DNA of 48,709 nt from Minisyncoccia bacterium (GTDB lineage Bacteria; Patescibacteriota; Minisyncoccia; Phycocordibacterales; UBA918). The notes under the pieces are model-generated. The model searched no databases and was not told where the DNA came from. It worked only from the letters and a program-made list of their open reading frames with translations. The stretch spans positions 222,549-271,257 of the forward strand of contig JBKJIT010000003.1 of the NCBI GenBank assembly GCA_046598345.1, read 5' to 3'. Positions 3,084 to 47,895 of this stretch are shown here, one piece after another (position 1 is the first letter of the stretch; the number at the start of each line of letters is the position of its first letter). The position numbers and the translations under genes are program-made.

Positions 3084-3215
3084 ATGCCTAACAACAACAA
3101 GAACAATAACGGCAACAGCAACAACAATTCGAATTCTTCCAAGGACACAAAGGATCGAGATAATCGTACTAAGGGGAGCCAGAACCGCCAGGGCGGTAAT
3201 AGTAGTAATAAATAA
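3084..3215 (+). CDS. Asn/Ser/Gly-rich 43-aa microprotein
   Basis: MPNNNKNNNGNSNNNSNSSKDTKDRDNRTKGSQNRQGGNSSNK*; below the ORF-track cutoff and followed by a long hairpin. Confidence 0.5.
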   Translation: MPNNNKNNNGNSNNNSNSSKDTKDRDNRTKGSQNRQGGNSSNK

Positions 3216-7586: not shown

Positions 7587-7619
7587 AGAAAAACACCAGG
7601 CTCCGCCTGGTGTTTTTCT
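7587..7619 (+). terminator. Intrinsic terminator
   Basis: agaaaaacaccaggc-tcc-gcctggtgtttttct. Confidence 0.8.
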
Positions 7620-7700
7620 AAATATGAAGAAGAAATTTTGTGCGAAGTGTAACGGCTAGAGACGTACATCGGACCTTAAGAGTTTAGTTTTATATATTCT

Positions 7701-9680
7701 ATGTTTAATCACCTCAAATTACTGAGCTTTACAAGTATCACCATGGTACTTGTCGCTTTTGTATATATTCAAATTTTACAGCCTTCATACGTTAGAGCCC
7801 AAAGTTCTGTTGAATTGGATGTTGAGATTCAAAAAAATGTTGCTGGACAACTTCCTCCAGGCTACGAAGAAACCCAGTTTGCATTTGTAGTGTCTGGTCC
7901 AGGATTCACCCAGGATGTTTATGTGACTCCCGATGGACCTAAATTCACAGCGACACTTCCATTGTCAGATGGAACATATACCATCACTGAGATTGGACCA
8001 GCTGGTTTTAATCCAGATGACTGGGAGGTGCAATGGAGTGGCGCATGTAAGCAGAGCGACTCAAATCAATTTGAGGCGACGTTTGTAGTTGCTCCAAATC
8101 ATAATAATGAGTTGGGAGATCAGCCGTGTAGAGCTAAAAATAAATGGCGTCCAGAAAAAGAAGATAATGGCGGTGGGGGTACTAGCACAGCAACACTCAA
8201 TGTGACGAAAGTGATTGTGGGTACCACAACGGTTCCTGCAAATGCCTTTTCATTCTCATACAGTGGCACAGATTCTGGAACTCACACGTTTGAAGCTGAT
8301 GGTACAAATATTCTCACACTCAACAAAGGGACCTATTCTGTGACTGAAAATCCTGCTCAGGGATACGTAACAACGTATAATAATTGCTCAAATATAAACC
8401 TTACATCAGGGGCTACATCAACGTGTGTTATTACGAACACCGCAACTTCAACTGGGAGTGGTGGAGGCGGTGGTACAGCGACAGGGACTCTTCTGGTTAC
8501 AAAAGAAATTGTTGGTACGACTACCGTTCCAGTAACCAATTTCGCATTCACCTATACGGGAGCACCAGGAAATATTAATTTTGAATCGGATGGGACGAAC
8601 ACACTGAAGCTCCCTGCGGGGACTTACTCGGTAACCGAATCGCCGCTTCGTCCTGGATATACTGTTTCCTATAACAATTGTTCCAGCATAACCATATTGG
8701 CAGGTGCTACAACCACGTGTGTCATAACGAACACGGCCACAACTTCGACTGGAGGAGGGGGTAACGGCACCGCAACTGGAACCCTACATGTAACAAAAGT
8801 GATTGTAGGAACAACAACTGTGCCTACTACGGCATTTTCCTTCTCATATAGTGGAACAAGCACAGGAGCTCATGCATTTGAGGCTGACGGAACTAATACT
8901 CTTGCACTTCCGGTTGGAACATACTCCATCACTGAAAATGCAGCTCCCGGATACCTAACAACATACCAAAACTGCTCCAATATATCCCTAACGTCTGGAG
9001 CTACAACTACCTGCACAATCACCAACACTGCAACCTTAGCGGGAGGCGGGGGTGCCGCAACGGGAACCTTACGTGTGTCAAAAGTTATTATGGGCACAAC
9101 TACTGTTTCTACCACTAACTTTTCCTTCACCTATACGGGAGGCGGAAACATAAGCTTTGAAGCCGATGGTACAAATGTCCTCCAGCTGCCTGTTGGTATC
9201 TATAGTGTGTCCGAGTCTTCTATTCCGGCGGGATACCTAGCTTTATACAACAATTGCTCAAACCTTGTAATTGCCGCGAATGCGACGACAACTTGTATTA
9301 TCACAAATACTGCTACCACTAGCGGAGGTTCTTCAACGACGGGAACTATTGTAGGTAATGTAGATGGTTCTTCAACCTCTACAGCGGGAACTATTAGCGG
9401 AGAAGTTACGGATGACGACGAAAATGATACTGGTGGAGGCGGGGGCGGTGGTGGACGACGATCGTCGGGCGGGGGAGGTGGCGATGACGACGATGATGAT
9501 GACGATAGTTCGGGAGGTGGTGGAGGCGGAGCAACTCCTGAAGTCCTTGGTGAAAGTACCAGTGTGACTCCATTAGGTGCTCCAAATACAGGAGGTGGTG
9601 GAACTTCACCTCAACAATTGCCTCAGATTCAAACCTTATTCGCTATCCTCTCCGGAAACAGGATACATATTCGGAAGTAA
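7701..9680 (+). CDS. Secreted surface protein 1: four CnaB/SpaA-like repeats, Gly/Asp-rich linker, APNTG sorting-like motif
   Basis: Signal or TM at the N-terminus; 4 repeats of L.V.K..GT.YS.TE...GY...Y.NC....C.ITN; C-terminal PEVLGESTSVTPLGAPNTGGGG. Confidence 0.85.
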   Translation: MFNHLKLLSFTSITMVLVAFVYIQILQPSYVRAQSSVELDVEIQKNVAGQLPPGYEETQFAFVVSGPGFTQDVYVTPDGPKFTATLPLSDGTYTITEIGPAGFNPDDWEVQWSGACKQSDSNQFEATFVVAPNHNNELGDQPCRAKNKWRPEKEDNGGGGTSTATLNVTKVIVGTTTVPANAFSFSYSGTDSGTHTFEADGTNILTLNKGTYSVTENPAQGYVTTYNNCSNINLTSGATSTCVITNTATSTGSGGGGGTATGTLLVTKEIVGTTTVPVTNFAFTYTGAPGNINFESDGTNTLKLPAGTYSVTESPLRPGYTVSYNNCSSITILAGATTTCVITNTATTSTGGGGNGTATGTLHVTKVIVGTTTVPTTAFSFSYSGTSTGAHAFEADGTNTLALPVGTYSITENAAPGYLTTYQNCSNISLTSGATTTCTITNTATLAGGGGAATGTLRVSKVIMGTTTVSTTNFSFTYTGGGNISFEADGTNVLQLPVGIYSVSESSIPAGYLALYNNCSNLVIAANATTTCIITNTATTSGGSSTTGTIVGNVDGSSTSTAGTISGEVTDDDENDTGGGGGGGGRRSSGGGGGDDDDDDDDSSGGGGGGATPEVLGESTSVTPLGAPNTGGGGTSPQQLPQIQTLFAILSGNRIHIRK

Positions 9681-9691
9681 GATAGGAGACT

Positions 9692-9742
9692 TGCATATAA
9701 CCAAAAAATCTCGCCTCGTGCGAGATTTTTTGGTTATATGCA
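9692..9742. repeat. Perfect 23-bp inverted repeat (5-nt loop), likely terminator
   Basis: tgcatataaccaaaaaatctcgc-ctcgt-gcgagattttttggttatatgca. Confidence 0.88.
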
Positions 9743-9763
9743 CACTTTTCGTCTCACTCTTCG

Positions 9764-9792
9764 TTGACTTCATCCTTAGTGAGCCGTAGTCT
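9764..9792 (+). promoter_or_regulatory. Sigma70-type promoter for the small Cys-rich ORF
   Basis: TTGACT-17 nt-TAGTCT. Confidence 0.6.
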
Positions 9793-9836
9793 GGAACTAG
9801 ATCGTCTTTTGTTTCTTTTTTCCAAGGAGCAACATC

Positions 9837-10028
9837 ATGACCGAGAAGGAAGTAAAGTGCACGGGCTGTCACAACACCCTCTGTATAGGAAGTCTCCAGC
9901 CTGTCATTGTTGAAGTAGCTGGGGTCAAAAAGCCTTTCTGTTCCTACGGGTGTGGTGGCCGCTTTCTCCTTATGCCCATTCAGACAGACTTGTTTGCAAC
10001 GCCGCAACAATTGCAACTGGCGATGTGA
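9837..10028 (+). CDS. Small Cys-rich protein, TRASH/FCS-like metal finger
   Basis: CTGC...FCSYGC; AGGAG RBS upstream, its own promoter, and a TTCG-loop hairpin with T tract at ~10045-10080. Confidence 0.65.
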   Translation: MTEKEVKCTGCHNTLCIGSLQPVIVEVAGVKKPFCSYGCGGRFLLMPIQTDLFATPQQLQLAM

Positions 10029-10398
10029 GGAAACTTGTCACCCATTCCCCGTTTCGACGGGGAATCGTTTTTTGATTTTTCTACAAAATCGCGAAGCAAC
10101 TCTTTATCTAAACCGTCAATATAATGAAGGGTAAATGAAGCCTGCCACTATACGTATATTTTAAGCCGTACTTTAAGATGCGAAACGAGCCGCCAATTTT
10201 TACTTGCGTAAATAAAAAAGATGTGGTATAAGCATTGTAGTTTGTATTGATGTTCCAGAGTTGTCGTCTACTATATATAGTAGTAAGCTGTTTTCATGAA
10301 GAAGCTCATTCGGCATGAAAGAGCGACTGAGGAGGTTATTAAGATTTAAAGGTAAAATTAACTTATTTATGCAAAGTATTACTAGTGGGTTCACGCCA

Positions 10399-12987
10399 AT
10401 GCGCAAAATTGCAGCGCTTGTGGCGATTTTTGCGTTGGTCTTTTCACCACTCGCAGGCGTTCAGTTTGCAAGTGCAGCAGCTGGAGAAGTCAATACTGTT
10501 ACGGGCTCTTGTGGAGCGCCAGTAAACGAGAATCAGTACGAAGTAGGGCAGGCCGTTCTACTTAAAGGGAAGGATTTCCTTCCGAACACTCAGTATAGCT
10601 GGGACATTTCTCCAGCAGCTGGTGGTCCCAATGCTGTAGCAATAGCCAGTGGTTTTGTGACCACTGATGCAAATGGTGATTTTTGCTTCACTGCGATCCC
10701 ATCATTGCCAGAAGGTTCAGAGGATAACGATCCTTTTAAGGCAACAGTGGGTGGTGCAAAATCAGATAATTTTAGTGTAAACGAAAGTGTCAATTCTAAT
10801 GGCACTATCGTTGTTGTAAAAGAATTAGTAAATGAACCAGAAGGTGTTACCGCTGATGATTTCAGCTTCACTGTAAATGGTGGTGATGCAGTTCAATTTG
10901 ATCTTGATGGGTCAAATAATTCAATTCAAAACCTCAATGATGGTCCATTTACAGTTGTAGAAGTTGAGGAAGATGGTGATGGTTACGCTACTTCTTATGA
11001 AGGTTGTTCATCTATTGCACTTACAACAGCAGGTGCAACATGCACTATCACGAACACTTACGAAGCAGCTCCAGTTTGTGAAGACCCAAATGCAAACAAT
11101 GAGAATGAGCCGCTTCCATGTACATATGATCCAACCCAAGCTGTAATTACAGTCAATAAAATAGTAGTAAATCCAGATACTTCAGTAACTCCAAACTATT
11201 TCTCTTTCACCGTAGATGGAGGATTTGGGAATATTTTCGAGGCTGACGGGTCTAATCAAGTAGTTGTAACAACTGCAGGAGTACACAATATCGTTGAAGT
11301 TACTGCGACAGATTACACAACAACATACGATGGATGTTCTCCAACCGTTGTTCTTGGGCAGTCTTACACTTGCACAATAACAAATACGTTTAATCCAGGT
11401 TCTATTACAATCGATAAGGTTGTAACAGGAGCAGGTGCTAATCAGGATCTTGATTTCACATTCACAGGATTCTTTAGCCCATTCTTCTTGCTTTCAGGAA
11501 GCGATGCACCGAAAGTATACACAGGACTTACTTCTGGCGAATACAGCATTACAGAAGTTGATGCATCAGATTACACACTCACCGGAGTGGAATGTAAGGT
11601 TGGTGAAGTTGTAAAAACTGATCTCAATGCAGACGCAGATACTATTCGAATCGCTCTTGGAGCTGGCGAAAATGCAACATGCACATTCACTAACGCAAAG
11701 GATGTGGTTGACGACACTACAATTACGATCAATAAGGTTACGAATGTAGCGAGTGGCGATATGTTCGACTTCTACCTCGATGGAGGAGTGGCAACCTCAG
11801 CGTCACTTATGGGAGGTCAGTCTTCTGGCGCAATGGTAGTTACTCCAGGTTCACACAACCTTGTGGAGGGAGGAGAAACAGGATGGACACTCAATCAAGA
11901 AACTTCTTCTTGTGTAAACGAATCACAAAATGAAGTTGGAGGATTTGATGGCAACCCATATTACCTCACGCTTACAGCTGGAGATGATATTGTGTGTACA
12001 TTTAATAACACACGAGACACGGGTGTACTCCAGGTAAAGAAAGTTGTCCTCGGTTCAGAAGCTGACGAAAGCGCATTTAGCTTCCAAGTAGATGGAGGAA
12101 CGGCTGCTGCTTTTGAGTCTGATGGAGAAAACAACATGACTGTTGTTACCGGCAACTACACAGTAACAGAAGTTGCAAATGCTAATTACGCAACTGTTTA
12201 CGACAACTGTACTGATGTTGCGGTAACGGAAGGAGCGACAACTACATGTACAATCACAAACCGATTCATTGATACGAGTGATGATTCACTCTCATGTTCA
12301 ATCAATGCAAGCGACGTGTCAGTATCAGAAAATCAGGAAGTTACTCTTACATGGGAATCTAACAATGCAACTGATGTAGACATTAGTGGCATCGGAAACA
12401 ATCTTGATCTCGATGGTTCAACATCGACAACAGTGGCTAACGACACTACCTACACACTCACTGCTTCACGCATGGGTGATAACGAAGAACTTGAATCAAT
12501 TCAGTGCCAGGTCACTGTTGACGTTCAGTCAGGCGGTGGAGGAGGCGGAGGTGGAAGTTCACCTTCACCACGTTGTGATGCATTTGAACTCGATGGTGAT
12601 GATCTCTCATGGGAGACTCGAAACGGGTACGACATGAACATTACGCGAAATGGTGATGAGATTTTCTCAACCACAAATGACGATGTAACTGACGAAGGAA
12701 TCTTCGAAACTGCATCTGATGAGGGGGATGTGTTCCTTCTCACGGTAAATCGTGGAAGCAAGGATGATACTTGCCGACTTGAAGTTGATGAAAATGGAGG
12801 CGGAGGCGGAAGCAGCACACCAACCCCAGAGGTATTGGGTGAGGCTACGAGCGTTATTCCACAAGGTGCTCCAAACACGGGCGCTGGAGGATCAGCATCT
12901 TCACTCCCATCTGCGTTCGCACTCCTTGGAATGGTTATGGCTCTCATGACCATTCGAGGAACACGACGTGATGATGAAAAGGCTTAA
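10399..12987 (+). CDS. Secreted surface protein 2: five CnaB/SpaA-like repeats, Ig/PKD-like domain, APNTG sorting signal + hydrophobic tail
   Basis: Signal peptide MRKIAALVAIFALVFSPLAGVQFASA; repeats with K...E...C...C.(I/F)(T/N)N; C-terminal PEVLGEATSVIPQGAPNTGAGG...AFALLGMVMALMTIRGTRR. Confidence 0.87.
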   Translation: MRKIAALVAIFALVFSPLAGVQFASAAAGEVNTVTGSCGAPVNENQYEVGQAVLLKGKDFLPNTQYSWDISPAAGGPNAVAIASGFVTTDANGDFCFTAIPSLPEGSEDNDPFKATVGGAKSDNFSVNESVNSNGTIVVVKELVNEPEGVTADDFSFTVNGGDAVQFDLDGSNNSIQNLNDGPFTVVEVEEDGDGYATSYEGCSSIALTTAGATCTITNTYEAAPVCEDPNANNENEPLPCTYDPTQAVITVNKIVVNPDTSVTPNYFSFTVDGGFGNIFEADGSNQVVVTTAGVHNIVEVTATDYTTTYDGCSPTVVLGQSYTCTITNTFNPGSITIDKVVTGAGANQDLDFTFTGFFSPFFLLSGSDAPKVYTGLTSGEYSITEVDASDYTLTGVECKVGEVVKTDLNADADTIRIALGAGENATCTFTNAKDVVDDTTITINKVTNVASGDMFDFYLDGGVATSASLMGGQSSGAMVVTPGSHNLVEGGETGWTLNQETSSCVNESQNEVGGFDGNPYYLTLTAGDDIVCTFNNTRDTGVLQVKKVVLGSEADESAFSFQVDGGTAAAFESDGENNMTVVTGNYTVTEVANANYATVYDNCTDVAVTEGATTTCTITNRFIDTSDDSLSCSINASDVSVSENQEVTLTWESNNATDVDISGIGNNLDLDGSTSTTVANDTTYTLTASRMGDNEELESIQCQVTVDVQSGGGGGGGGSSPSPRCDAFELDGDDLSWETRNGYDMNITRNGDEIFSTTNDDVTDEGIFETASDEGDVFLLTVNRGSKDDTCRLEVDENGGGGGSSTPTPEVLGEATSVIPQGAPNTGAGGSASSLPSAFALLGMVMALMTIRGTRRDDEKA

Positions 12988-13633
12988 CCTTACATTTCTT
13001 AATACAACGAAACGCCACTACCTTCGGGTAGCGGCGTTTGTTGTATTTGGAATCTCACTCGGTGTACTCTTGTACCCAAAAGTATACCCTTATTTCAGCG
13101 ATCGAAGTGTTGTGGTAAATAATCCATCTGCCCTTGAAAGTACTTCGACTCCAGACGGACTTTCGAGGTCAGCCCCAGTACGGCTTCGAATTCCTACGCT
13201 TAATCTCGATACCACCTTTGAGGCGCCCCTTGGCCTCAATGCCGATCTCACGGTTTCAGTGCCTAAGTCCTATGAGAAAGTTGGGTGGTATAAATTTGGT
13301 CCAACACCAGGAGAAGTAGGTCCCGCGGTGGTTCTGGGGCATGTAGATTCCGTAGATGGCGCAGCGGTGTTTTATGAACTAGGCCAACTCACTCCTGGCG
13401 ATCAAATCTTTGTTCAGCGTCAAGATGGCACTGAAGCGGTATTTGAAGTGGATTTTCTTGAACGATACCCACAGGAGGAATTCCCCTCAGGGCTCGTCTA
13501 TGGTGAAGTTCCGTACTCCGCGCTTCGGCTTGTTACGTGCACTGGCTCATTCGATAAAGGTGAGCAGCGGTACAGCCACAACTTGGTGGTGTACGCAAAG
13601 TTGGTAGAGCAAACTCAAGCTACGAATATTTAA
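12971..13633 (+). CDS. Class F sortase
   Basis: N-terminal TM, PVRLRIP, VGWY..GPTPGEVGPAVVLGHVD, VFYELGQL, LRLVTCTG, YSHNLVVYA; overlaps the stop of surface protein 2. Confidence 0.93.
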   Translation: MMKRLNLTFLNTTKRHYLRVAAFVVFGISLGVLLYPKVYPYFSDRSVVVNNPSALESTSTPDGLSRSAPVRLRIPTLNLDTTFEAPLGLNADLTVSVPKSYEKVGWYKFGPTPGEVGPAVVLGHVDSVDGAAVFYELGQLTPGDQIFVQRQDGTEAVFEVDFLERYPQEEFPSGLVYGEVPYSALRLVTCTGSFDKGEQRYSHNLVVYAKLVEQTQATNI

Positions 13634-14501
13634 ATTTTGCAGCAATAATTTCTGCAATTCGAGTGAATACCTTAAATTCGTGAACTGACTCAAAGCCTTT
13701 CACTTGAGGAGATTTATTAACTTCAAGTACGACAGGTCCAGTATCGGTATGAATCATATCTACCCCGGCAAGATCAATGCTGCACGCCTTTGCTGCAGCA
13801 AGAGCAATTTCCAATTCACCCTGAGTAAGTGTTGTTTTCGCAGGGATTGCTCCTTGACCAATGTTATTTAAATATCCACTCGTACGAGTTCGTTTGATGC
13901 TTCCTAGGACTTCCCCATAGGCAACGAGAGTGCGTGTATCGAATGTGTTTTCAATAAAAGGCTGAATGAGAGCCAATTGGCGGGGAAGTTTACGTTCTAC
14001 AACTTGGTCAAGTTCTTCCAGTGAGGTAAGCAGATGTACATTTATTCCTTTACTTCCATCTGTTTTGAATATGAGTGGAAACGTTACCTGCGAAGCTATA
14101 TATTCACGGTTGGCATGGTACGACTCCTCTCGGAATACCATGGTTGGAGGAATTCGTATTCCGGCAAGCGCTAGCAGCATCATTTGTGAAATCTTTTCGG
14201 CACTATGGGGATAGGAACGATTGATAGGGTCATTGGTGGGAATCCTATTCTGATCGAAATATTCATAAAGCATGCCACAAAAATGTGCATCAGTAGCTCG
14301 AAGGCGGGTAAAGACGTGGGTGCCATGTAAATCAATCTGAGTGTTTTTATTAAAAAAGGTTATGTTGCCATTTTCCTGTATATGAAGGAGCATTTCTTTT
14401 GTTTTGTAGTAGGCTATCGAAGCTTTTTGAATACCTGACGCAAAAGCGCCTCGGGTTTTGTTTCCCGCATTCAATAGAATATATGTAGGTTGCTTTGACA
14501 T
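13620..14501 (-). CDS. RimK-family ATP-grasp ligase
   Basis: FPLIFKTDGSKG, IQPFI, DTRTLV, GYLNNIGQG, AGVDMI, VLEVNKSPQVKGFE. Confidence 0.85.
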   Translation of the reverse strand: MSKQPTYILLNAGNKTRGAFASGIQKASIAYYKTKEMLLHIQENGNITFFNKNTQIDLHGTHVFTRLRATDAHFCGMLYEYFDQNRIPTNDPINRSYPHSAEKISQMMLLALAGIRIPPTMVFREESYHANREYIASQVTFPLIFKTDGSKGINVHLLTSLEELDQVVERKLPRQLALIQPFIENTFDTRTLVAYGEVLGSIKRTRTSGYLNNIGQGAIPAKTTLTQGELEIALAAAKACSIDLAGVDMIHTDTGPVVLEVNKSPQVKGFESVHEFKVFTRIAEIIAAKFKYS

Positions 14502-14662
14502 AGTGTATTTAGGGTGCACTGTAATACTAAATGGGGAAAATTGCAATTCTACAGATTTATTGTGTAGTATAATCGAGTCTTAAAAACGTTGTATAGTAGC
14601 GCCCACATTCATTACTACCTGTATACGGCGACCGTTCTTTCTCTCGGAGGGAGTCATCATTT

Positions 14663-15940
14663 ATGAAGACAGAACAAAAAAACATCATTGCATATGTCAT
14701 GAATTTACCTTCGGATGCTATTCCAAGCATTCGTCGATATGGGCGTAGCATTGATAAAAAATTCAAGGTAATGCTCATTTGGGATACAAATGTCAAAACG
14801 GAAAAAGATAAAGATGCATATCAGGGATTAGATATTTTTCTCCCCATTGATCTCTCAAAGCCAAATGCTATCGCTGAAGCCCTTGCACCGTATCAGTCGA
14901 AACTCTGTGCCATTTCATGTCGCACAGAATCATACATGGCTCGCTTTATTCAAGTGATTCCCCATGTGCCGTATTTGCGAACACCTACGACAGAATCGCT
15001 TAAGTGGGCTTCAGACAAACTTGAGATGCGCCGCCGCTTTGCGCTCCTTGCACCAAAATTTTCTCCCAAGTATGCAGTCGTAAAAGAAAATACATCATCG
15101 GAACGAAGGCGTGTCATAGAAAAGATTAGATTCCCGCTCATTGTGAAGCCTACTAACCTCGCTCAAAGTCTTCTGGTATCAATTTGCTATCACGAAGAAG
15201 AATTTAAAAAGGTACTCACCAACGCTTTTATAAAAATTCAAAAAATATACGATGAAAATGGACGTATTGAGGCTCCAAAAATTATTGCTGAGGAGTTTAT
15301 GGATGGTGATATGTATTCGGTTGATGCATATGTAAATTCACGCGGCAGTATATATTTTTGTCCAATGGTTAAGGTGGTGACGGGAAAAATGATTGGTCAT
15401 GATGATTTTTTTAATTATCTCCATATGTCCCCGACAGCGCTTAAAAAATCTTCAATTGAAAAAGCTCATACTGCAGCAGAGGCAGGTATTCATGCTCTTG
15501 GGCTTAGAAACACGACTGCGCATGTCGAACTTATGAAAGTTGATGATGAGTGGAAGCTCATTGAGATTGGTCCGCGTATAGGAGGATTTAGACACAAGCT
15601 TCACGAACTTTCCTGCGATATCGATCACTCACTCAATGATATTCTTATCCGGTTGCCGAAGCGTCCAATTCTTCCCAAGAAATGCAAAGGGTATGCTGCA
15701 ACCCTCAAGTGGTATCCAAAAAAAGAGGGTATCATCACAAAACTTAAGGGTATTAAAAAGTGCCGCGATCTTAAATCGTTTGTTGATATTAACGTAGTGA
15801 AAAAAGTGGGTGATCGCTGTCGATTTGCCAAAAATGGAGGAAAGGCGGTATTTACAGTCACACTATTCAATGTTGAACGCTCGAAGCTTCTTGCGGATAT
15901 ACGACGAGTTGAGCAACTGATTAACATTGAAATAGCTTAA
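14663..15940 (+). CDS. ATP-grasp enzyme (L-amino-acid-ligase-like)
   Basis: DKLEMRRRF, FPLIVKP, IIAEEFMDG..YSVD, AHVEL, KLIEIGPRIGG. Confidence 0.87.
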   Translation: MKTEQKNIIAYVMNLPSDAIPSIRRYGRSIDKKFKVMLIWDTNVKTEKDKDAYQGLDIFLPIDLSKPNAIAEALAPYQSKLCAISCRTESYMARFIQVIPHVPYLRTPTTESLKWASDKLEMRRRFALLAPKFSPKYAVVKENTSSERRRVIEKIRFPLIVKPTNLAQSLLVSICYHEEEFKKVLTNAFIKIQKIYDENGRIEAPKIIAEEFMDGDMYSVDAYVNSRGSIYFCPMVKVVTGKMIGHDDFFNYLHMSPTALKKSSIEKAHTAAEAGIHALGLRNTTAHVELMKVDDEWKLIEIGPRIGGFRHKLHELSCDIDHSLNDILIRLPKRPILPKKCKGYAATLKWYPKKEGIITKLKGIKKCRDLKSFVDINVVKKVGDRCRFAKNGGKAVFTVTLFNVERSKLLADIRRVEQLINIEIA

Positions 15941-35957: not shown

Positions 35958-36545
35958 ATGACACTTACATACATTCTGATCGCGGTTGTTGTTGCTCTCG
36001 TACTCTGGGTAATTTTTGCTTACAACAACTTTGTTCGTCTCGTACAGCGCACCAAGGAAGCGTGGGCTGATATTGATGTACAGCTAAAGCGCCGCTACGA
36101 TCTTATTCCAAACCTTGTTGAAGCAGTGAAGGGCTATGCTTCGCACGAGCGAGCGACCTTTGACGCGGTAACCGAAGCGCGGGCAAAGGCTACGCAGGTG
36201 CATATCGATCCTACCAACATCACTCCGGAGCAAATTGCTGCGATGGATGGTGCACAAGCAAACCTTACGCAATCTCTTGGGAAACTTCTTGCAGTTGCAG
36301 AGGCGTATCCGGACCTTAAGGCGAATACCAATTTCCTCGAGCTTCAGCGTGAACTCTCTGATACTGAAAATAAGATTCAAGCAGCACGACGCTTTTACAA
36401 CGGCAACGTGCGTGATTTGAAGATTGCACTCCAGTCGTTTCCATCAAACCTCATTGGAAACATGTTTAACTTCAAGGAAGAGCAGTTCTATGAACTTAGT
36501 GAAGCAGACGCTGCAGCGAAAGAGCCAGTGAAAGTAAGTTTTTAA
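35958..36545 (+). CDS. lemA: LemA family protein
   Basis: AWADIDVQLKRRYDLIPNLV, AEAYPDLKANTNF, ENKIQAARRFYN. Confidence 0.96.
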   Translation: MTLTYILIAVVVALVLWVIFAYNNFVRLVQRTKEAWADIDVQLKRRYDLIPNLVEAVKGYASHERATFDAVTEARAKATQVHIDPTNITPEQIAAMDGAQANLTQSLGKLLAVAEAYPDLKANTNFLELQRELSDTENKIQAARRFYNGNVRDLKIALQSFPSNLIGNMFNFKEEQFYELSEADAAAKEPVKVSF

Positions 36546-36571
36546 TCCGCTTTAATCTCTCCGTACATTTT

Positions 36572-36943
36572 ATGGAAAAAATTTATTACAACAAGCTCTG
36601 TCGAGACAAGGTACCGGACATCATCCGAGAAAAAGGTTTTGAGTGTGAAGTTAGAGAAACGGATCACGACGAGTATAAGCGAGAAATTATTCGGAAGGTT
36701 TTTGAAGAGGCGAGTGGAGTTTCAAACCACGACGGTAAAGAACACCTCCTTAAGCAGCTTGCAGATTTGGTTATTACGCTTGACGCGGTGACTGCTGAGT
36801 ACGGCATTACTGACGATGAGCTCGATGCGGCTGTAGAAAAAAGCTATGAAGAAAAAGGGGGATACGAAGATCGTCTTTATCTTTCATGGTCCTCAGATAC
36901 GGATTATAGCTCGCATGACCAAGGACATGGTTTTGATGACTAA
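36572..36943 (+). CDS. MazG-like nucleoside-triphosphate pyrophosphohydrolase family protein
   Basis: YNKLCRDKVPDII...EY...KVFEE...LAD...EEKGGY pattern. Confidence 0.75.
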   Translation: MEKIYYNKLCRDKVPDIIREKGFECEVRETDHDEYKREIIRKVFEEASGVSNHDGKEHLLKQLADLVITLDAVTAEYGITDDELDAAVEKSYEEKGGYEDRLYLSWSSDTDYSSHDQGHGFDD

Positions 36944-37065
36944 AACTCATTTCAAAACCGCTATCTACTTTGTCACCATCGTCCTTCAAACACTCATCAT
37001 ATGAGTATATGCCTCATGTTCTCAGTCCTTGGTTCCTCGTATCTAGGGAGTTTTGAAATGAGTTT
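36943..37065. repeat. Structured intergenic element, copy D (80-nt core 36965-37044)
   Basis: CTACTTTGT-4-ATCGTCCTT-6-CTCATCATA-6-TATGCCTCA-19-CTCGTATCT; 16-bp perfect outer arms aaactcatttcaaaac/gttttgaaatgagttt. Confidence 0.9.
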
Positions 37066-38779
37066 AAGCTATGTAAAAAAGACTCTAATGTGCGTATGTG
37101 TAGTATTTTCTTTACTACCGCTATTTGTACAAGCTGAGTATATCCAATCCTTTGATGCAACAATTGAACTCCAAGAAGACAGTTCTTTCACGGTAACCGA
37201 GGTTATCGAGTACGTCTTTACTGAGGAGCGTCATGGGATCTTTAGGTACATTCCTACCATCCACCCTGAGCCTGCGTCCTCGGGATTACGTGAGCTATAC
37301 CTTGATGTGGAACTTACAGGAGTCAGTATGGATGGGAAAACAGTGCCATACGAGGTGACCGATGGGCGGAGTGAATTCTATGTAAAGATTGGAGACCCAG
37401 ATGCAACCATTAACGGAACTCATACATACACCATTACGTATGAGATTACTGGGGGTATGTTGTATAATCCTGCAACTGAGCTCTATTGGAATGTAACGGG
37501 GAATGACTGGGAAGTGCCAGTGCGCGCGGCGACAGGTCGCATTGTTGGACCTGATGGAATTTTTGCCGCTGAACGAACCTGCTACCGTGGTGTGCGGGGG
37601 ATGACGGGTTCATGTGGCAGTGTGAAGCAAGAAGGGAAAGATATTGTATTTACTTCAACTCAGCTCGAGCCTGGGGAAGGAATGACGATTGCGCAGGGAC
37701 TTAATCCAGCGATGGTAGAAAAAGTAGTGCTCGAACGGTACAAGGCTTTTCTTCTCAGTATTATTGTCGTGGGCGTTTGGCTTCTCGGTCTCATTATTTT
37801 TGTATTTCGATATACGACTGCGCATAGTACAGGGCGCACCATCATTCCTGAATACGAACCGTACCCGAACGTGAAGCCCATGTACGCCGGCCTCCTTATG
37901 GATGGTAAACTTGATCCGCGAGACATCGCCGCATGTATTGTCTTTCTAGCGGAGCAAGGGTATCTTAAGATTAAGAAGATCGATAAAAAGGTACTTTTCT
38001 TTTTCGAGGTTGATGATTATGAACTCAGTGTAGTCAAAGTACCCGATGATGGCATAAGTCATTTTGAAAAAAGCATACTTACTATTTTCTTCGATAGTGT
38101 GAGTGTGCCAGCCGGCACAACGATCACTCTTAGTCAACTTAAAAATCCATCGGTTGGCAGGCAAAATTACATTGAAATTGAATCCTTACGCAAGGAGCTT
38201 GAGGAGGATCTAGAAGCGTCTGGATTCTTTCAGAAGAATCCAATTGTAAAGACTGCGGGGATTATACTCGGTGCCAGTATTGTGTTGGGTATGATCTTCT
38301 TTGCCACGCCCCTCAGTTCCTATCTTTCATACTTGGGATTAGGTTCACTCCTCGTTGCGGTCTGCACGTTTCTCACCATGATTGTGCTCATCGTATTCGC
38401 AAGACGGAGGAGAACACGAAAGGGCTACGAAGCACGAGATCACCTCCGCGGATTTAAGGAATTCCTTAGCGTCACGGAAAAAGATCGATATGAATTTCAT
38501 AATGCACCAGAAAAAAGTCCCGAGCAGTTCATGGCGTTTCTTCCGTATGCCATAGCGTTTGGGGTTGAAGAAAAATGGGCAGAGGCATTCAAAGACATGA
38601 CTCTACCGACACCAGGTTGGTACGACGGAGGAAACATGGCATCATTTTCAGCGGTAAATCTTTCGAGTAGTCTAGGGGCATTTTCAATTGCATTTGCGGC
38701 ATCCTCCGGCGCCTCAGCGTCGTCAGGCGGCGGTTCGTCAGGAGGCGGTGGGGGTGGAGGAGGGGGAGGCTCATGGTGA
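37058..38779 (+). CDS. DUF2207 family membrane protein
   Basis: EYIQSFDATI...VTEVI...HGIFR, ELYWNVTGNDW, FLPYAIAFGV..KW, C-terminal GGGSSGGGGGGGGGGSW; the start is 37058 or 37088 rather than 37001. Confidence 0.9.
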   Translation: MSLSYVKKTLMCVCVVFSLLPLFVQAEYIQSFDATIELQEDSSFTVTEVIEYVFTEERHGIFRYIPTIHPEPASSGLRELYLDVELTGVSMDGKTVPYEVTDGRSEFYVKIGDPDATINGTHTYTITYEITGGMLYNPATELYWNVTGNDWEVPVRAATGRIVGPDGIFAAERTCYRGVRGMTGSCGSVKQEGKDIVFTSTQLEPGEGMTIAQGLNPAMVEKVVLERYKAFLLSIIVVGVWLLGLIIFVFRYTTAHSTGRTIIPEYEPYPNVKPMYAGLLMDGKLDPRDIAACIVFLAEQGYLKIKKIDKKVLFFFEVDDYELSVVKVPDDGISHFEKSILTIFFDSVSVPAGTTITLSQLKNPSVGRQNYIEIESLRKELEEDLEASGFFQKNPIVKTAGIILGASIVLGMIFFATPLSSYLSYLGLGSLLVAVCTFLTMIVLIVFARRRRTRKGYEARDHLRGFKEFLSVTEKDRYEFHNAPEKSPEQFMAFLPYAIAFGVEEKWAEAFKDMTLPTPGWYDGGNMASFSAVNLSSSLGAFSIAFAASSGASASSGGGSSGGGGGGGGGGSW

Positions 38780-38817
38780 CTCCTTGCAGCCCCTAACCAG
38801 TAGCGTAAAATAATGGG

Positions 38818-39726
38818 ATGGCAACACTATATACTCATCAAAGTGAAAATATCGGAAAGACCTGGCTACTCATGGGTACATTCCTCGTACTTGTAATCGC
38901 GATTGGCTATGCAGCGAGCTGGTACCTCGGAAACTCTACAATTCTCTACATTGCAATAATTTTTGCCCTCATTATGAACGTGGGTTCATATTGGTTTTCA
39001 GATAAGATCGTGCTCAGGATGACAGGAGCAAAGCCGGTGACTCGCGAGCAAGCTCCTGATCTTTGGAATATTGTTGAAAATCTGGCAATCACTGCGGGAC
39101 TTCCAATGCCAAAGGTGTATGTGGTTAATGATCCTGCGCCCAATGCCTTTGCAACAGGCCGTGATCCCGAACATGCTGTTGTAGCAGTCACGACGGGTAT
39201 CCTACAGATTCTGGATCGCTCTGAACTTGAAGGAGTGATCGCACACGAACTCTCGCATATTGGAAATCGTGACATGCTCGTCATGACCGTTGCAGTAGTG
39301 CTCGCGGGATTCATTGCGATGCTTGCCGATTTCTTTATGCGTTCGCTAATGTGGGGAGGGGGCGATAACCGCAACCGCAGCCCTGTGTTTCTTATTGTGG
39401 GTGTGATTGGGATTATTCTTGCCCCAATTGCTGCGCAGCTCATTAAGCTCGCGGTTTCAAGGAAGCGTGAGTATCTTGCTGACGCTTCTGGAGCACTCTT
39501 GACGCGCTATCCGGAAGGACTCGCCCGAGCACTTGAAAAAATTGCGGCGCATTCTCGCCCCATGACGAAAGCGAGCCACGCAACTGCCCATCTTTTCATT
39601 TCAAACCCATTTGGAAATAGCGAGCAGTCTGTTGGGAAGAAAATTGGAGGACTTTTTCAAACGCACCCGCCCGTGTCTGAGAGGATCCGCATCCTTCGTG
39701 GCATGGACACTAAATCACACAACTAA
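38818..39726 (+). CDS. htpX: HtpX-like M48 zinc metalloprotease
   Basis: PNAFATGR, ELEGVIAHELSHI, SRKREYLADA, LARALEKI, THPP. Confidence 0.94.
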   Translation: MATLYTHQSENIGKTWLLMGTFLVLVIAIGYAASWYLGNSTILYIAIIFALIMNVGSYWFSDKIVLRMTGAKPVTREQAPDLWNIVENLAITAGLPMPKVYVVNDPAPNAFATGRDPEHAVVAVTTGILQILDRSELEGVIAHELSHIGNRDMLVMTVAVVLAGFIAMLADFFMRSLMWGGGDNRNRSPVFLIVGVIGIILAPIAAQLIKLAVSRKREYLADASGALLTRYPEGLARALEKIAAHSRPMTKASHATAHLFISNPFGNSEQSVGKKIGGLFQTHPPVSERIRILRGMDTKSHN

Positions 39727-39831: not shown

Positions 39832-40602
39832 GTGATGGGTGAAATTATTGCGAATGAACGACAACACCCCGAGCTTGACCGACGGCACGCCCACGATCAA
39901 GTAGATGGTGAGGCCGAAAGAGAAATCATGATGGAAGAGTGGGTGAGTAGAAACAAAACCCTAGAATGTGCAAATCCTCAATGCATGGAAATGCATGTGT
40001 TGTTTCAGTCTGTGATTGACAGGCAGGAAGAGACAATCGCATCCCTAAGGCAGGCGGCGGAAATTGATCCGATCACGAAGCTCCCCAATCGTCGTCGGTT
40101 TGACTCTGACTCGAAGACTCTCGAGGTCAAGTTAGAGAACGGGGAAATCTCCACCCTCTGCGCTATCATTATCGACCTTGACCGCTTTAAAGTTGTGAAT
40201 GACACATACGGGCACGCCTTTGGTGATAGGGTTCTTGCGAAGGTGGGGGGGAGAGTGCAGTACTTCCACCGCAATCTCATTATTACGGCTGGTCGCACAA
40301 GAGGAGCACGTCGTGGCCTTTATGATCCTAAAGTAGGGAGAACTGGGGGAGAAGAACTAGCAATACTAATCCCAAACGTACAAGTGGATCCTTGTGAAGC
40401 CGTAAAGCCACTCTTGAAAAGTATCCGGAGCATTCGTTTCAAGGAAGAAGAGTATTCGCGGGTACGGATTACCGCAAGTATTGGAGTGGCCATTACAACA
40501 CGAGGTGGTCTGACACTCGCTGAACTCTTGAAAAAAGCAGATGATGCGATGTACGCTGCTAAACACCGAGGAAGAAATCAAGTTGTAGTTGCTGATAGTT
40601 GA
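39832..40602 (+). CDS. Cytoplasmic GGDEF-domain protein (diguanylate cyclase-like)
   Basis: DPITKLPNRR, IIDLDRFKVVNDTYGHAFGD, RTGGEEL, ITASIGVA, ADDAMYAAKHRGRNQV; AGGAGGT RBS. Confidence 0.9.
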   Translation: MMGEIIANERQHPELDRRHAHDQVDGEAEREIMMEEWVSRNKTLECANPQCMEMHVLFQSVIDRQEETIASLRQAAEIDPITKLPNRRRFDSDSKTLEVKLENGEISTLCAIIIDLDRFKVVNDTYGHAFGDRVLAKVGGRVQYFHRNLIITAGRTRGARRGLYDPKVGRTGGEELAILIPNVQVDPCEAVKPLLKSIRSIRFKEEEYSRVRITASIGVAITTRGGLTLAELLKKADDAMYAAKHRGRNQVVVADS

Positions 40603-42389: not shown

Positions 42390-42474
42390 GGAGGCGTCGC
42401 ATAGTGGCCTAGTGCGCTCGCTTGGAAAGCGAGTAGGGTGAAAGCCCTCGGAGGTTCAAATCCTCTCGCCTCCG
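42390..42474 (+). tRNA. tRNA-Ser(GGA), CCA not encoded
   Basis: Acceptor stem GGAGGCG/CGCCTCC, anticodon arm CTCGC-TTGGAAA-GCGAG, long variable arm, T-loop TTCAAAT, discriminator G. Confidence 0.97.
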
Positions 42475-42604
42475 CATCTGTTTTATAAGCCGACTGTTGT
42501 GGTCGGTTTTATAAAATAGGAGGACTGGATTTGAAGCTGTTCAGAGATAGTTTTGGAGTCATCAGACGAACAAAAATATCCTGAACGGGTACTGAACATG
42601 TAAT

Positions 42605-47345: not shown

Positions 47346-47376
47346 CCTTTTTTGATATTTATTGTATAATGTGTCG

Positions 47377-47738
47377 ACGTTCGTGGTCGCTCAGTACTTT
47401 TGTATTGAGAGGAAAGTCCGAACACGCCCCACCATTTGGCGGGAGCAGGGTAGCGGGTAACGCCCGTCTAGAGCAATCTACGAGATGCGAGCAGAGACGC
47501 TCCCCACGAAAGAGCGGGAGCGTCTCTCCTGTCGAAAGATACGGAGAGACGAGCTTCATGGCGACATGAAGGTGAAACGGCTAAATTCTTACCTGCGTGC
47601 AAGGCCGTGTCCATCGGTACTCAAAGCGCATGCGCGAGGACCGATGGAAGTGCCGCAAGAGCATGCCGGCAACGGTGTGCCTAGGTAAATGACCACACTG
47701 CATCTTTCGAGATGCAGACAGAATTCGGCTTATAACGT
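47377..47738 (+). ncRNA. rnpB: RNase P RNA (bacterial, type A-like)
   Basis: GAGGAAAGTCCGAACAC near the 5' end, GGTGAAACGG, TGCAAGG, ACAGAATTCGGCTTAT near the 3' end, P1 acgtt/aacgt; TATAAT at 47365-47370. Confidence 0.96.
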
Positions 47739-47895
47739 ACAAAACAGACACCCTTTGGGGTGTCTGTTTTGTAAACCGGAGTGATGTTTTGCCGATGTCA
47801 ATGAGGCAAAACCACGAGGTCGGGTAGGAGGTTGTTGGGAGCGTAGCGAGTTACAAACCTGACACCAAAACAAGCACCCTTTTGGGTGCTTGTTT
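47738..47895. repeat. Two related hairpins bracketing a structured ~95-nt core after rnpB
   Basis: tacaaaacagacaccc-tttg-gggtgtctgttttgta (47738-47773) and aaacaagcaccc-tttt-gggtgcttgttt (47868-47895). Confidence 0.75.

Follow-up and report, generated by a model that had tools for sequence, protein, structure and literature searches.

In a 48,709-nucleotide (nt) stretch of the genome of a Minisyncoccia bacterium (Patescibacteriota; contig JBKJIT010000003.1, positions 222,549 to 271,257), hereafter the window, the region 7701-13633 holds three open reading frames (ORFs), all in the same orientation. They encode two secreted substrate proteins, which we call P1 and P2, and a class F sortase. 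These genes probably constitute a dedicated sortase–substrate cassette, in which the two clients would be processed in a GAPNTG core and linked to the cell wall. P1 and P2 end in nearly the same signal. Across related genomes this signal is conserved while the passenger proteins that carry it vary, and signal and sortase are genetically linked whichever of the two serves as the starting point of the search. All coordinates are those of the window unless another locus is named, and the features at the centre of the analysis are the following.

7701-9680, + strand: ORF of P1, 659 amino acids (aa), secreted substrate protein
10315-12987, + strand: ORF of P2, 890 aa; the database gene call (P0121) is 872 aa, from Met19
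10369 or 10399, + strand: candidate starts of P2, at Met19 or at Met29, the latter with the signal peptide MRKIAALV..ASA/AAGE
12968-13633, + strand: class F sortase ORF, 221 aa from GTG; the database call (P0001) is 219 aa, from ATG at 12974
9531-9677, + strand: C-terminal sorting signal of P1, ATPEVLGESTSVTPLGAPNTGGGG, then the short, weakly hydrophobic tail TSPQQLPQIQTLFAILSGNRIHIRK
12820-12984, + strand: C-terminal sorting signal of P2, PTPEVLGEATSVIPQGAPNTGAGG, then SASSLPSAFALLGMVMALMTI (hydrophobic), then RGTRRDDEKA (basic)
9537-9602 and 12826-12891, + strand: the shared tail strings, PEVLGESTSVTPLGAPNTGGGG in P1 and PEVLGEATSVIPQGAPNTGAGG in P2

An earlier note on this DNA, made from the sequence alone, had described two repeat surface proteins with a shared sorting signal. 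Both proteins indeed have predicted N-terminal signal peptides, SpaA-type repeats and a common C-terminal block. The coordinates given there were exact for the P2 string (12826-12891), whereas the P1 string ends at 9602, so that the 9599 of the note was 3 nt short. The two strings are identical at 18 of 22 residues and belong to a block of 22-24 residues that reads PEVLGE..S..P.GAPNTG.GG. Among the ORFs of the window, only P1 and P2 carry this motif. Comparison of the 24-codon tail block between the two genes revealed 6 identical codons, 13 synonymous differences and 5 residue changes, a pattern that points to purifying selection on the peptide. We considered recent gene conversion between the two tails and rejected it because 13 of the 24 codons differ synonymously.

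To follow the pairing of signal and sortase, genomes were scanned with a profile built from the sortase alignment, which yielded 564 relatives; the best 80 loci were used, of which ~63 are from Patescibacteria, followed by Actinomycetota. At most of the Patescibacteria loci, the ORF immediately 5' of the sortase ends in the same block and frequently overlaps the sortase start. The strict core is upstream-adjacent in 49 of the 58 Patescibacteria loci with enough upstream sequence, and in ~52 of them when near-variants are counted (e.g. L041, L056, L058 and L064). The core regular expression P.G[AG][APV].[TAM]G.G, run in six frames over 1.3 Mb of related loci with an estimated ~0.2 chance matches, found 67 matches. 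All except one (66) are on the sortase strand, most are just 5' of the sortase gene, and 61 fall 15-45 residues before a stop codon.

The reverse search began from the signal, with metagenomes scanned by a DNA pattern for P.GAPNTGAGG alone. It returned 33 loci with 35 occurrences, all in frame, 33 of them at 15-45 residues before the stop and two at 2-5 residues. The earlier note had proposed to check the co-occurrence of the signal with class F sortases, with a motif equally common in genomes without one as the refuting case; the sortase proved to be directly downstream in 24 of the 31 occurrences with at least 600 nt of downstream sequence, within fragmentary contigs, and elsewhere in the locus in 2 further occurrences. 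The pairing of tail and sortase across dozens of related lineages is not chance, and the linkage is strong in both directions.

Adjacency has exceptions. The motif proteins at L094, L098 and L102/L105/L111 have no class F sortase in the 0.6-4.7 kb available downstream; the tails at L102, L105 and L111 are identical (..PTIPTGAPNTGAGGSASSGVSGWLYVW..RRSRR). On GC-rich contigs from fen and bog metagenomes (L084, L097 and L108) we observed tandem arrays with two class F sortases each, and the L097 array contains two signal-bearing proteins. The signal of these arrays, AVIPVGAPNTGAGG..GLGGLALLLAGAGAT..RRRRQV, is without a VLGE block, and one L097 copy (L097b, at 3119-3150) ends in ..GAPNTGAGGAAKTE directly before the stop codon, without a tail. 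Similarly, at the Amycolatopsis loci L066, L068, L076 and L077, proteins ~1 kb upstream of a class F sortase end in ..VP.GAAKAGDGSLAE, with the stop four residues past the motif-like core and without a hydrophobic or basic tail. In L076 and L077 at least, a second, normal GVDTG-type protein lies between the tail-less protein and the sortase.

The similarity of the P1 and P2 tails could be a mere remnant of gene duplication, without any sorting function. The two proteins are distant paralogs, with passenger parts ~25% identical over the repeats, but conservation of the tail far exceeds that of the remaining sequence, at 18 of 22 residues despite the synonymous codon differences described above. 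At E<=1e-3, a profile of the two window tails matched 163 cluster representatives; the 150 matches that were listed all end within ~25 residues of the C-terminus, most within 10. The passengers at the related sortase loci differ, and carry SpaA, SdrD_B, Flg_new_2, DUF4114 or LTD domains, or none detected. Because the tail recurs on unrelated passengers in dozens of lineages, mostly at the C-terminus and mostly beside a sortase, the duplication-remnant explanation is effectively refuted and we give it almost no weight. A word-indexed homolog search with the 57-aa P2 tail returned no candidates.

What is conserved extends well beyond the core. Position frequencies taken over 53 Patescibacteria signals give the consensus P-x-[GP]-[EQ]-V-L-G-[ED]-[QAS]-[VT]-[ST]-x-[VMLI]-P-x-G-A-[PA]-[ND]-[T38/A14]-G-A-G-G-[TA]-[SA]-P, in which the P at 0 and the Gly at +2, +7 and +9 were imposed by the regular expression, so that their invariance carries no weight. 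The spacing from VLG to the core is constant in ~90% of the signals, with V at -9 in 48, L at -8 in 44 and G at -7 in 47 of the 53. The P.G.VLG[ED]..S extension was seen only in Patescibacteria-type tails among those sampled. The earlier note had singled out the PEVLGE block as conserved and as a possible extra recognition or processing element. Its conservation stands, at fixed spacing across Patescibacteria, and our preferred reading is that it would be an extended recognition element on the non-primed side, compensating for a weak, Gly/Ala-rich core.

Alternatively, the core would be processed by the sortase and the VLGE block would have a structural role beside it, for example as a spacer across the wall, as a hinge or as a stalk unit with glycosylated Ser/Thr. 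Arguing for this, tandem copies of the unit P.G.VLG[EDA]..[ST] are common upstream (L011, L020, L023, L026 and L043), as is typical of spacer repeats, and Ser/Thr-rich positions come after the block. Moreover, the block is absent beside homologous sortases (~45-50% identical) of Actinomycetota and of the GC-rich fen/bog group, and because of this absence it is evidently not needed by the family. Counter to this, the fixed spacing to the core argues for recognition, and the block is kept across very different passengers, although both the length and the sequence of a simple spacer should drift. We consider a structural role possible but on the doubtful side, and retain recognition as the reading that we prefer.

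The core has known relatives. The form [VI]P.G[AG][AP][DN]TG.GG is a divergent relative of the NCBIfam model NF058571, "GVDTG sorting domain" (GVDTG_CTERM, release 20). Tails adjoining homologous sortases in Actinomycetota and in the fen/bog group pass this model with 37.6-38.1 bits against a cut-off of 29, and E<=0.01 is reached by 28 of 59 Patescibacteria-type tails. The P2 tail reaches 16.9 bits (E 0.006), in a match that starts at IPQG; the P1 tail has no match at E<=10, and full-length P1 and P2 have none at E<=0.01. By these matches the core is a divergent member of a curated sorting-domain family and as such already known in kind. It also aligns with LPXTG position by position, as [GA][PA][ND][TA]G. 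The earlier note had pointed out the likeness of APNTG to LPxTG; the core is, in addition, related to NF058571. That model does not cover the VLGE block, which is also missing from the signals found outside Patescibacteria. A literature search found no description of GVDTG, APNTG or VLGE/EVLGE as sorting motifs. Apparently undescribed so far are the fixed-spacing P.G.VLG[ED]..S extension, the frequent change of Thr to Ala and the short, weakly hydrophobic tails.

Behind the core, the tails are of two types. One is long and hydrophobic, as in P2 (..LPSAFALLGMVMALMTI-RGTRR), and the other short, as in P1 (..LPQIQTLFAILSG-NRIHIRK), with a core LP..[FV]A[IL]L that recurs in many lineages. Thus, the tripartite architecture of motif, hydrophobic segment and basic cluster is complete in P2, whereas P1 has the motif and the basic end but a weakly hydrophobic middle segment of 8-13 residues. 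The P1 subtype (LP.IQT..A..L plus basic residues) recurs in L012, L027 and L032. We rejected a frameshift artefact as its origin: because the same short subtype occurs in other lineages, the P1 tail is a conserved variant rather than damage.

Such tails raise the possibility that the signal is cleaved without attachment to peptidoglycan, the product being released or moved to a lipid, the S-layer or a glycopolymer. Release or transfer of this kind might reflect the His-Cys-Asn active site and the unusual short tails. A classical membrane span would need more residues than many Patescibacteria tails offer, tail-less motif proteins exist at L097b and at the Amycolatopsis loci, and the catalytic Arg is lost family-wide (PMC6998099). 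On the other hand, the tripartite architecture is kept in P2 and in most homologs, and the sole characterised class F enzyme is reported to be a housekeeping sortase with a class A-like recognition sequence and catalytic activity (PMC8225981). We regard this alternative as improbable, and continue with attachment to the wall as the preferred outcome.

The enzyme was assigned to class F in the earlier note, and the profile searches agree. It scores 172.6 bits against NCBIfam NF033748 (class F; InterPro IPR042001), above the cut-off of 166. The second-best NCBIfam class is class E, with 27.8 bits against a cut-off of 160, and the Pfam Sortase match is at 6e-21. We take it to be a class F sortase by sequence, with a predicted transpeptidase role. 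The AlphaFold2 (AF2) model, with a predicted local distance difference test (pLDDT) score of 84, consists of an N-terminal helix (aa 4-39) followed by an 8-strand sortase barrel, and the top Foldseek matches are all sortases (E~1e-9). A phmmer search of the enzyme against PDB sequences found no match, only the profile and fold searches matching, and no class F structure was encountered in our PDB searches (phmmer, profile and Foldseek). The regions and key residues are:

aa ~4-39: N-terminal membrane-anchor helix of the sortase
aa ~64-213: catalytic domain of the sortase
13340-13342, + strand: His125, in GHVD
13538-13540, + strand: Cys191, in LVTC
13580-13582, + strand: Asn205, in YSHNLVV, which also holds Tyr202

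His125 and Cys191, which the earlier note had located in GHVD and LVTC, are invariant (24/24 and 79/79 relatives), as is Tyr202. The same note had remarked on an Asn where Arg usually sits. That Asn, Asn205, is present in 78 of 79 related sortases adjoining signals. In a profile alignment (E~1e-3), the Arg of Thermobifida fusca sortase E (SHRLIV) falls on Asn205 (SHNLVV). Arg197 of Staphylococcus aureus SrtA (RKIFVA) aligns with the same position. The observation is thus correct but not peculiar to this gene: the replacement of the catalytic Arg by a conserved Asn has been published as a hallmark of class F (PMC6998099; PMC8703055, citing Malik and Kim 2019).

We considered Arg201, four residues before Asn205, as a stand-in for the missing Arg. 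Initial support came from its presence in 23 of 24 close homologs and from its alignment with the Arg of Clostridium perfringens SrtD. As a general replacement it was rejected, since among 79 sortases the position is occupied by His in the fen/bog group and by Glu, Ser or Thr in several others; no universal replacement Arg was found across these signal-adjacent enzymes. Elsewhere in the enzyme, residue 67 (13166-13168) varies with the presumed P1 residue of the signal, Arg67 accompanying Thr in 32 of 47 pairs and Glu accompanying Ala in 7 of 13. Over the 60 enzyme–signal pairs the mutual information is 0.34, a value confounded by phylogeny, and the covariation may be due to co-evolution or to shared ancestry.

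The nearest relatives of the sortase (58-61% identity) come from metagenome-assembled genomes labelled Saccharibacteria and Kaiserbacteria, labels that are in line with a Patescibacteria origin of the window and make it probable. In the Doudnabacteria locus L060, two class F sortase genes are in tandem (9247-9873 and 10001-10438), and the protein that precedes both has a degenerate signal, ..TPVGGVAAGVAG, plus a hydrophobic tail. At the Patescibacteria loci L021, L033, L058 and L064 a conserved membrane protein of ~380-420 aa lies just downstream of the sortase, with the C-terminal pattern ..LLLSI..IR.HRP.Q.VY...L..L..G....H..LT.GA..; the equivalent place in the window does not contain it.

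Both substrates are built of SpaA-type domains, with Pfam matches above cut-offs for this type (SpaA and SpaA_2 in P1; SpaA_4 and SpaA_2 in P2) and a match to DUF7601 in P1, and both plausibly have Sec signal peptides, as judged by inspection. In P1 a divergent first SpaA-like domain (aa ~37-155) is followed by four repeats, a Gly/Asp-rich linker and the sorting signal:

aa 1-33 of P1: signal peptide (..SYVRA/QSS), predicted by inspection
8196-9311, + strand: four tandem prealbumin/SpaA-like repeats of 81-82 aa in P1 (aa 166-247, 264-345, 362-443 and 457-537)

In every P1 repeat we find Lys in the first strand (VTK), a pair of Cys, the E-box-like Y.[VI].E....GY and ITNT at the end. P2 consists of an N-terminal domain and five SpaA-like domains of the form K..E..C..C.[IF][TN]N, after which a pair of small C-terminal beta domains leads to a Gly linker and the signal. 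In every repeat of both proteins, K, E and N are at the positions expected for an isopeptide triad. The motifs match isopeptide-stabilised CnaB/SpaA domains, and both a Lys-Asn isopeptide and a disulfide may be predicted from them.

Domains of this kind invite comparison with pili. The sortase could be a class C-like pilus polymerase that joins P1 and P2, as pilins, head to tail into a fibre. Both substrates have SpaA/CnaB-type domains with E-box-like motifs, pilus-specific sortases are among the best Foldseek matches, and the clustering of the genes resembles pilus islands. However, class E and class D sortases are about as good as fold matches, no class C model is among the NCBIfam matches at E<=0.01, and a YPK-type ([YFW]PK) pilin motif is missing from P1 and P2, as is a DP[FWY] lid motif from the enzyme. 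In addition, most related loci have one substrate gene, with unrelated passenger domains. We find a pilus polymerase very unlikely, and prefer individual display of the two proteins on the wall.

The mechanism that we infer, in its cleavage, its scissile bond, its acceptor molecule and the role it gives to the VLGE block, would run as follows. P2 and the sortase would be made from one translationally coupled operon, and P1, the second client, would be transcribed separately from its gene just upstream. Both clients would be exported by Sec through their N-terminal signal peptides and held at the membrane by their C-terminal tails, P2 by a hydrophobic segment and basic end and P1 by a short, weakly hydrophobic LP..LFAIL segment and basic end. 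The membrane-anchored sortase (His125 and Cys191, with Asn205 for Arg) would recognise P.G.VLG[ED]..S..P.G-A-P-N-T-G-A-G-G, and Cys191 would attack inside the core, between [GA][PA][ND][TA] and G, the counterpart of the bond between T and G of LPXTG. Resolution of the acyl-enzyme by the amine of a cell-wall precursor would then leave stalk-like SpaA-domain proteins covalently displayed on the surface. The role in host attachment that the earlier note proposed for the cassette is speculation.

Several observations weigh against this mechanism. In an AF2 prediction of the P2 tail and the sortase as an artificial fusion, the pLDDT of the tail was 40-51, with no confident docking, which makes this model uninformative. 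The P1 tail and many others, with ~8-13 uncharged residues, are short for a membrane span, and P1 and P2 are both under the curated GVDTG_CTERM cut-off. The canonical catalytic Arg is absent from the sortase, and Arg201 is not kept outside the Patescibacteria clade. The presumed P1 (scissile) Thr is Ala in 14 of the 53 Patescibacteria signals, and in Doudnabacteria-like loci the core is degraded to P.GG[VI]AAG.[AG]G; because of these two features the scissile position is uncertain. From the literature, the sole characterised class F enzyme, Cutibacterium acnes SrtF, uses LPXTG (PMC8225981), and deletion of four class F sortases together left Actinoplanes without a phenotype (PMC13251363).

A wider reading is that the cassette represents a sorting pathway specific to Patescibacteria. 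In it, ~27 contiguous residues would be read as one signal by a class F sortase with a His-Cys-Asn active site, which would tolerate a non-Thr scissile residue, and the pathway would be the main covalent display route for adhesin-like stalk proteins in epibionts. The signal would run from the VLGE block through the P.GAPN[T/A]G core and the GAGG primed side to a conserved LP..[FV]A[IL]L tail often too short for a membrane, and the acceptor or the mode of retention may differ from the lipid II route. We offer this as a tentative and rather unlikely extension of the cassette itself.

The layout of the genes sets P1 apart from P2 and the sortase. As the earlier note had observed, the sortase start overlaps the stop codon of P2 (12985-12987), by 20 nt from the GTG or by 14 nt from the ATG; GAGGA is found 8-14 nt upstream of the sortase start. 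One further element bears on the separation of P1:

9692-9742, + strand: hairpin 3' of P1, a perfect 23-bp palindrome with an A-run and a T-run on its two sides

The folding energy of the hairpin, -34.5 kcal/mol (z = -11.2), was reached by 0 of 200 shuffles. It is likely to be a bidirectional intrinsic terminator that closes the P1 transcription unit; it is not among the terminators listed by a simple terminator scan. Because so strong a terminator hairpin lies directly after P1, the gene is its own transcription unit, separate from P2 and the sortase. Rfam and tandem-repeat scans of the locus had no match within 7600-13700.

Between P1 and P2 there is also a small, unrelated ORF of 63 aa (9837-10028, + strand), which matches the MYM-type zf-FCS zinc finger (26.7 bits, cut-off 22.4). 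It comes with an AGGAG ribosome-binding site of its own, and a hairpin resembling a terminator lies at 10044-10065. The window contains only this one sortase gene in its 48.7 kb, and the genes that flank the cassette are ordinary housekeeping, transport and signalling genes. Downstream of the sortase are a RimK-like gene (13620-14546, - strand) and an ATP-grasp_4 gene (14663-15940, + strand), both of the ATP-grasp type; the former is convergent with the sortase, with a 14-nt overlap of the 3' ends. Further along are a LemA / DUF2207 membrane protein / M48 peptidase trio (35958-39726, + strand) followed by a GGDEF protein (39832-40602), tRNA-Ser(GGA) (42390-42475, + strand) and a class A bacterial RNase P RNA (47372-47745, + strand; 108.7 bits).

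To our knowledge, the surface biology of Patescibacteria is largely unknown besides type IV pili. The signal provides a sequence handle with which to catalogue their covalently displayed surface proteins, which are candidate host-contact factors. This locus and its ~50 relatives are cognate enzyme–substrate pairs with a defined non-LPXTG signal, with which class F specificity and the function of the Asn that replaces Arg can be put directly to the test. An orthogonal sortase with a long recognition sequence could also serve protein ligation. With 101 of 464 in one survey (PMC8703055), class F ranks among the largest sortase classes in new sequence submissions; reviews assign it no function, and natural substrates are known for none of its members except the LPXTG-using C. 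acnes SrtF.

Looking across the known systems, class C pilus islands have in common with our locus SpaA/CnaB-type substrates with E-box-like motifs and their clustering with a dedicated sortase, and differ in the pilin motif, the lid and the class C model match discussed above. The LPXTG/class A system, as in S. aureus SrtA, follows the same logic of a Sec signal peptide, a C-terminal tripartite signal and a membrane-anchored Cys transpeptidase with the sortase fold. The two motifs share P-x-T-G, but P5 here is Gly or Ala rather than Leu, and conservation covers ~27 residues, the primed side (G-A-G-G) among them, in contrast to 5 in LPXTG. Consistent with a GAPNTG motif, the LPXTG cell-wall anchor model TIGR01167 has no match in P1 or P2. 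Furthermore, Asn replaces the catalytic Arg, and the enzyme is dedicated and adjacent to its clients, not a housekeeping enzyme with scattered clients. Class E enzymes, which use LAXTG (Streptomyces SrtE1 and T. fusca SrtE), tolerate Ala at P4 and are close neighbours in structure and sequence, but keep Arg where the window enzyme has Asn205.

Within class F, the sole characterised enzyme, SrtF of C. acnes (P. acnes), is reported to be a housekeeping sortase that recognises LPXTG (PMC8225981, PMC13257024). Compared by its published description, it belongs to the same class as the window enzyme, which is instead encoded beside its clients and paired with GAPNTG and its extensions. Closest of all are the pairs of NF058571 tails and NF033748 sortases in Actinomycetota (L067, L069, L070 and L079) and in the fen/bog group. 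These have the same core signature, [VI]P.G[GA][AVP][DN]TG.GG, in the same register, the same hydrophobic and then basic end, the same C-terminal place and the same gene order, directly 5' of a His/Cys/Asn class F sortase. To this the window tails add P.G.VLG[ED]..S, and the Patescibacteria versions often have Ala for Thr and short, weakly hydrophobic tails. Our finding extends the recently curated GVDTG system into Patescibacteria, where its signal is longer and distinctive.

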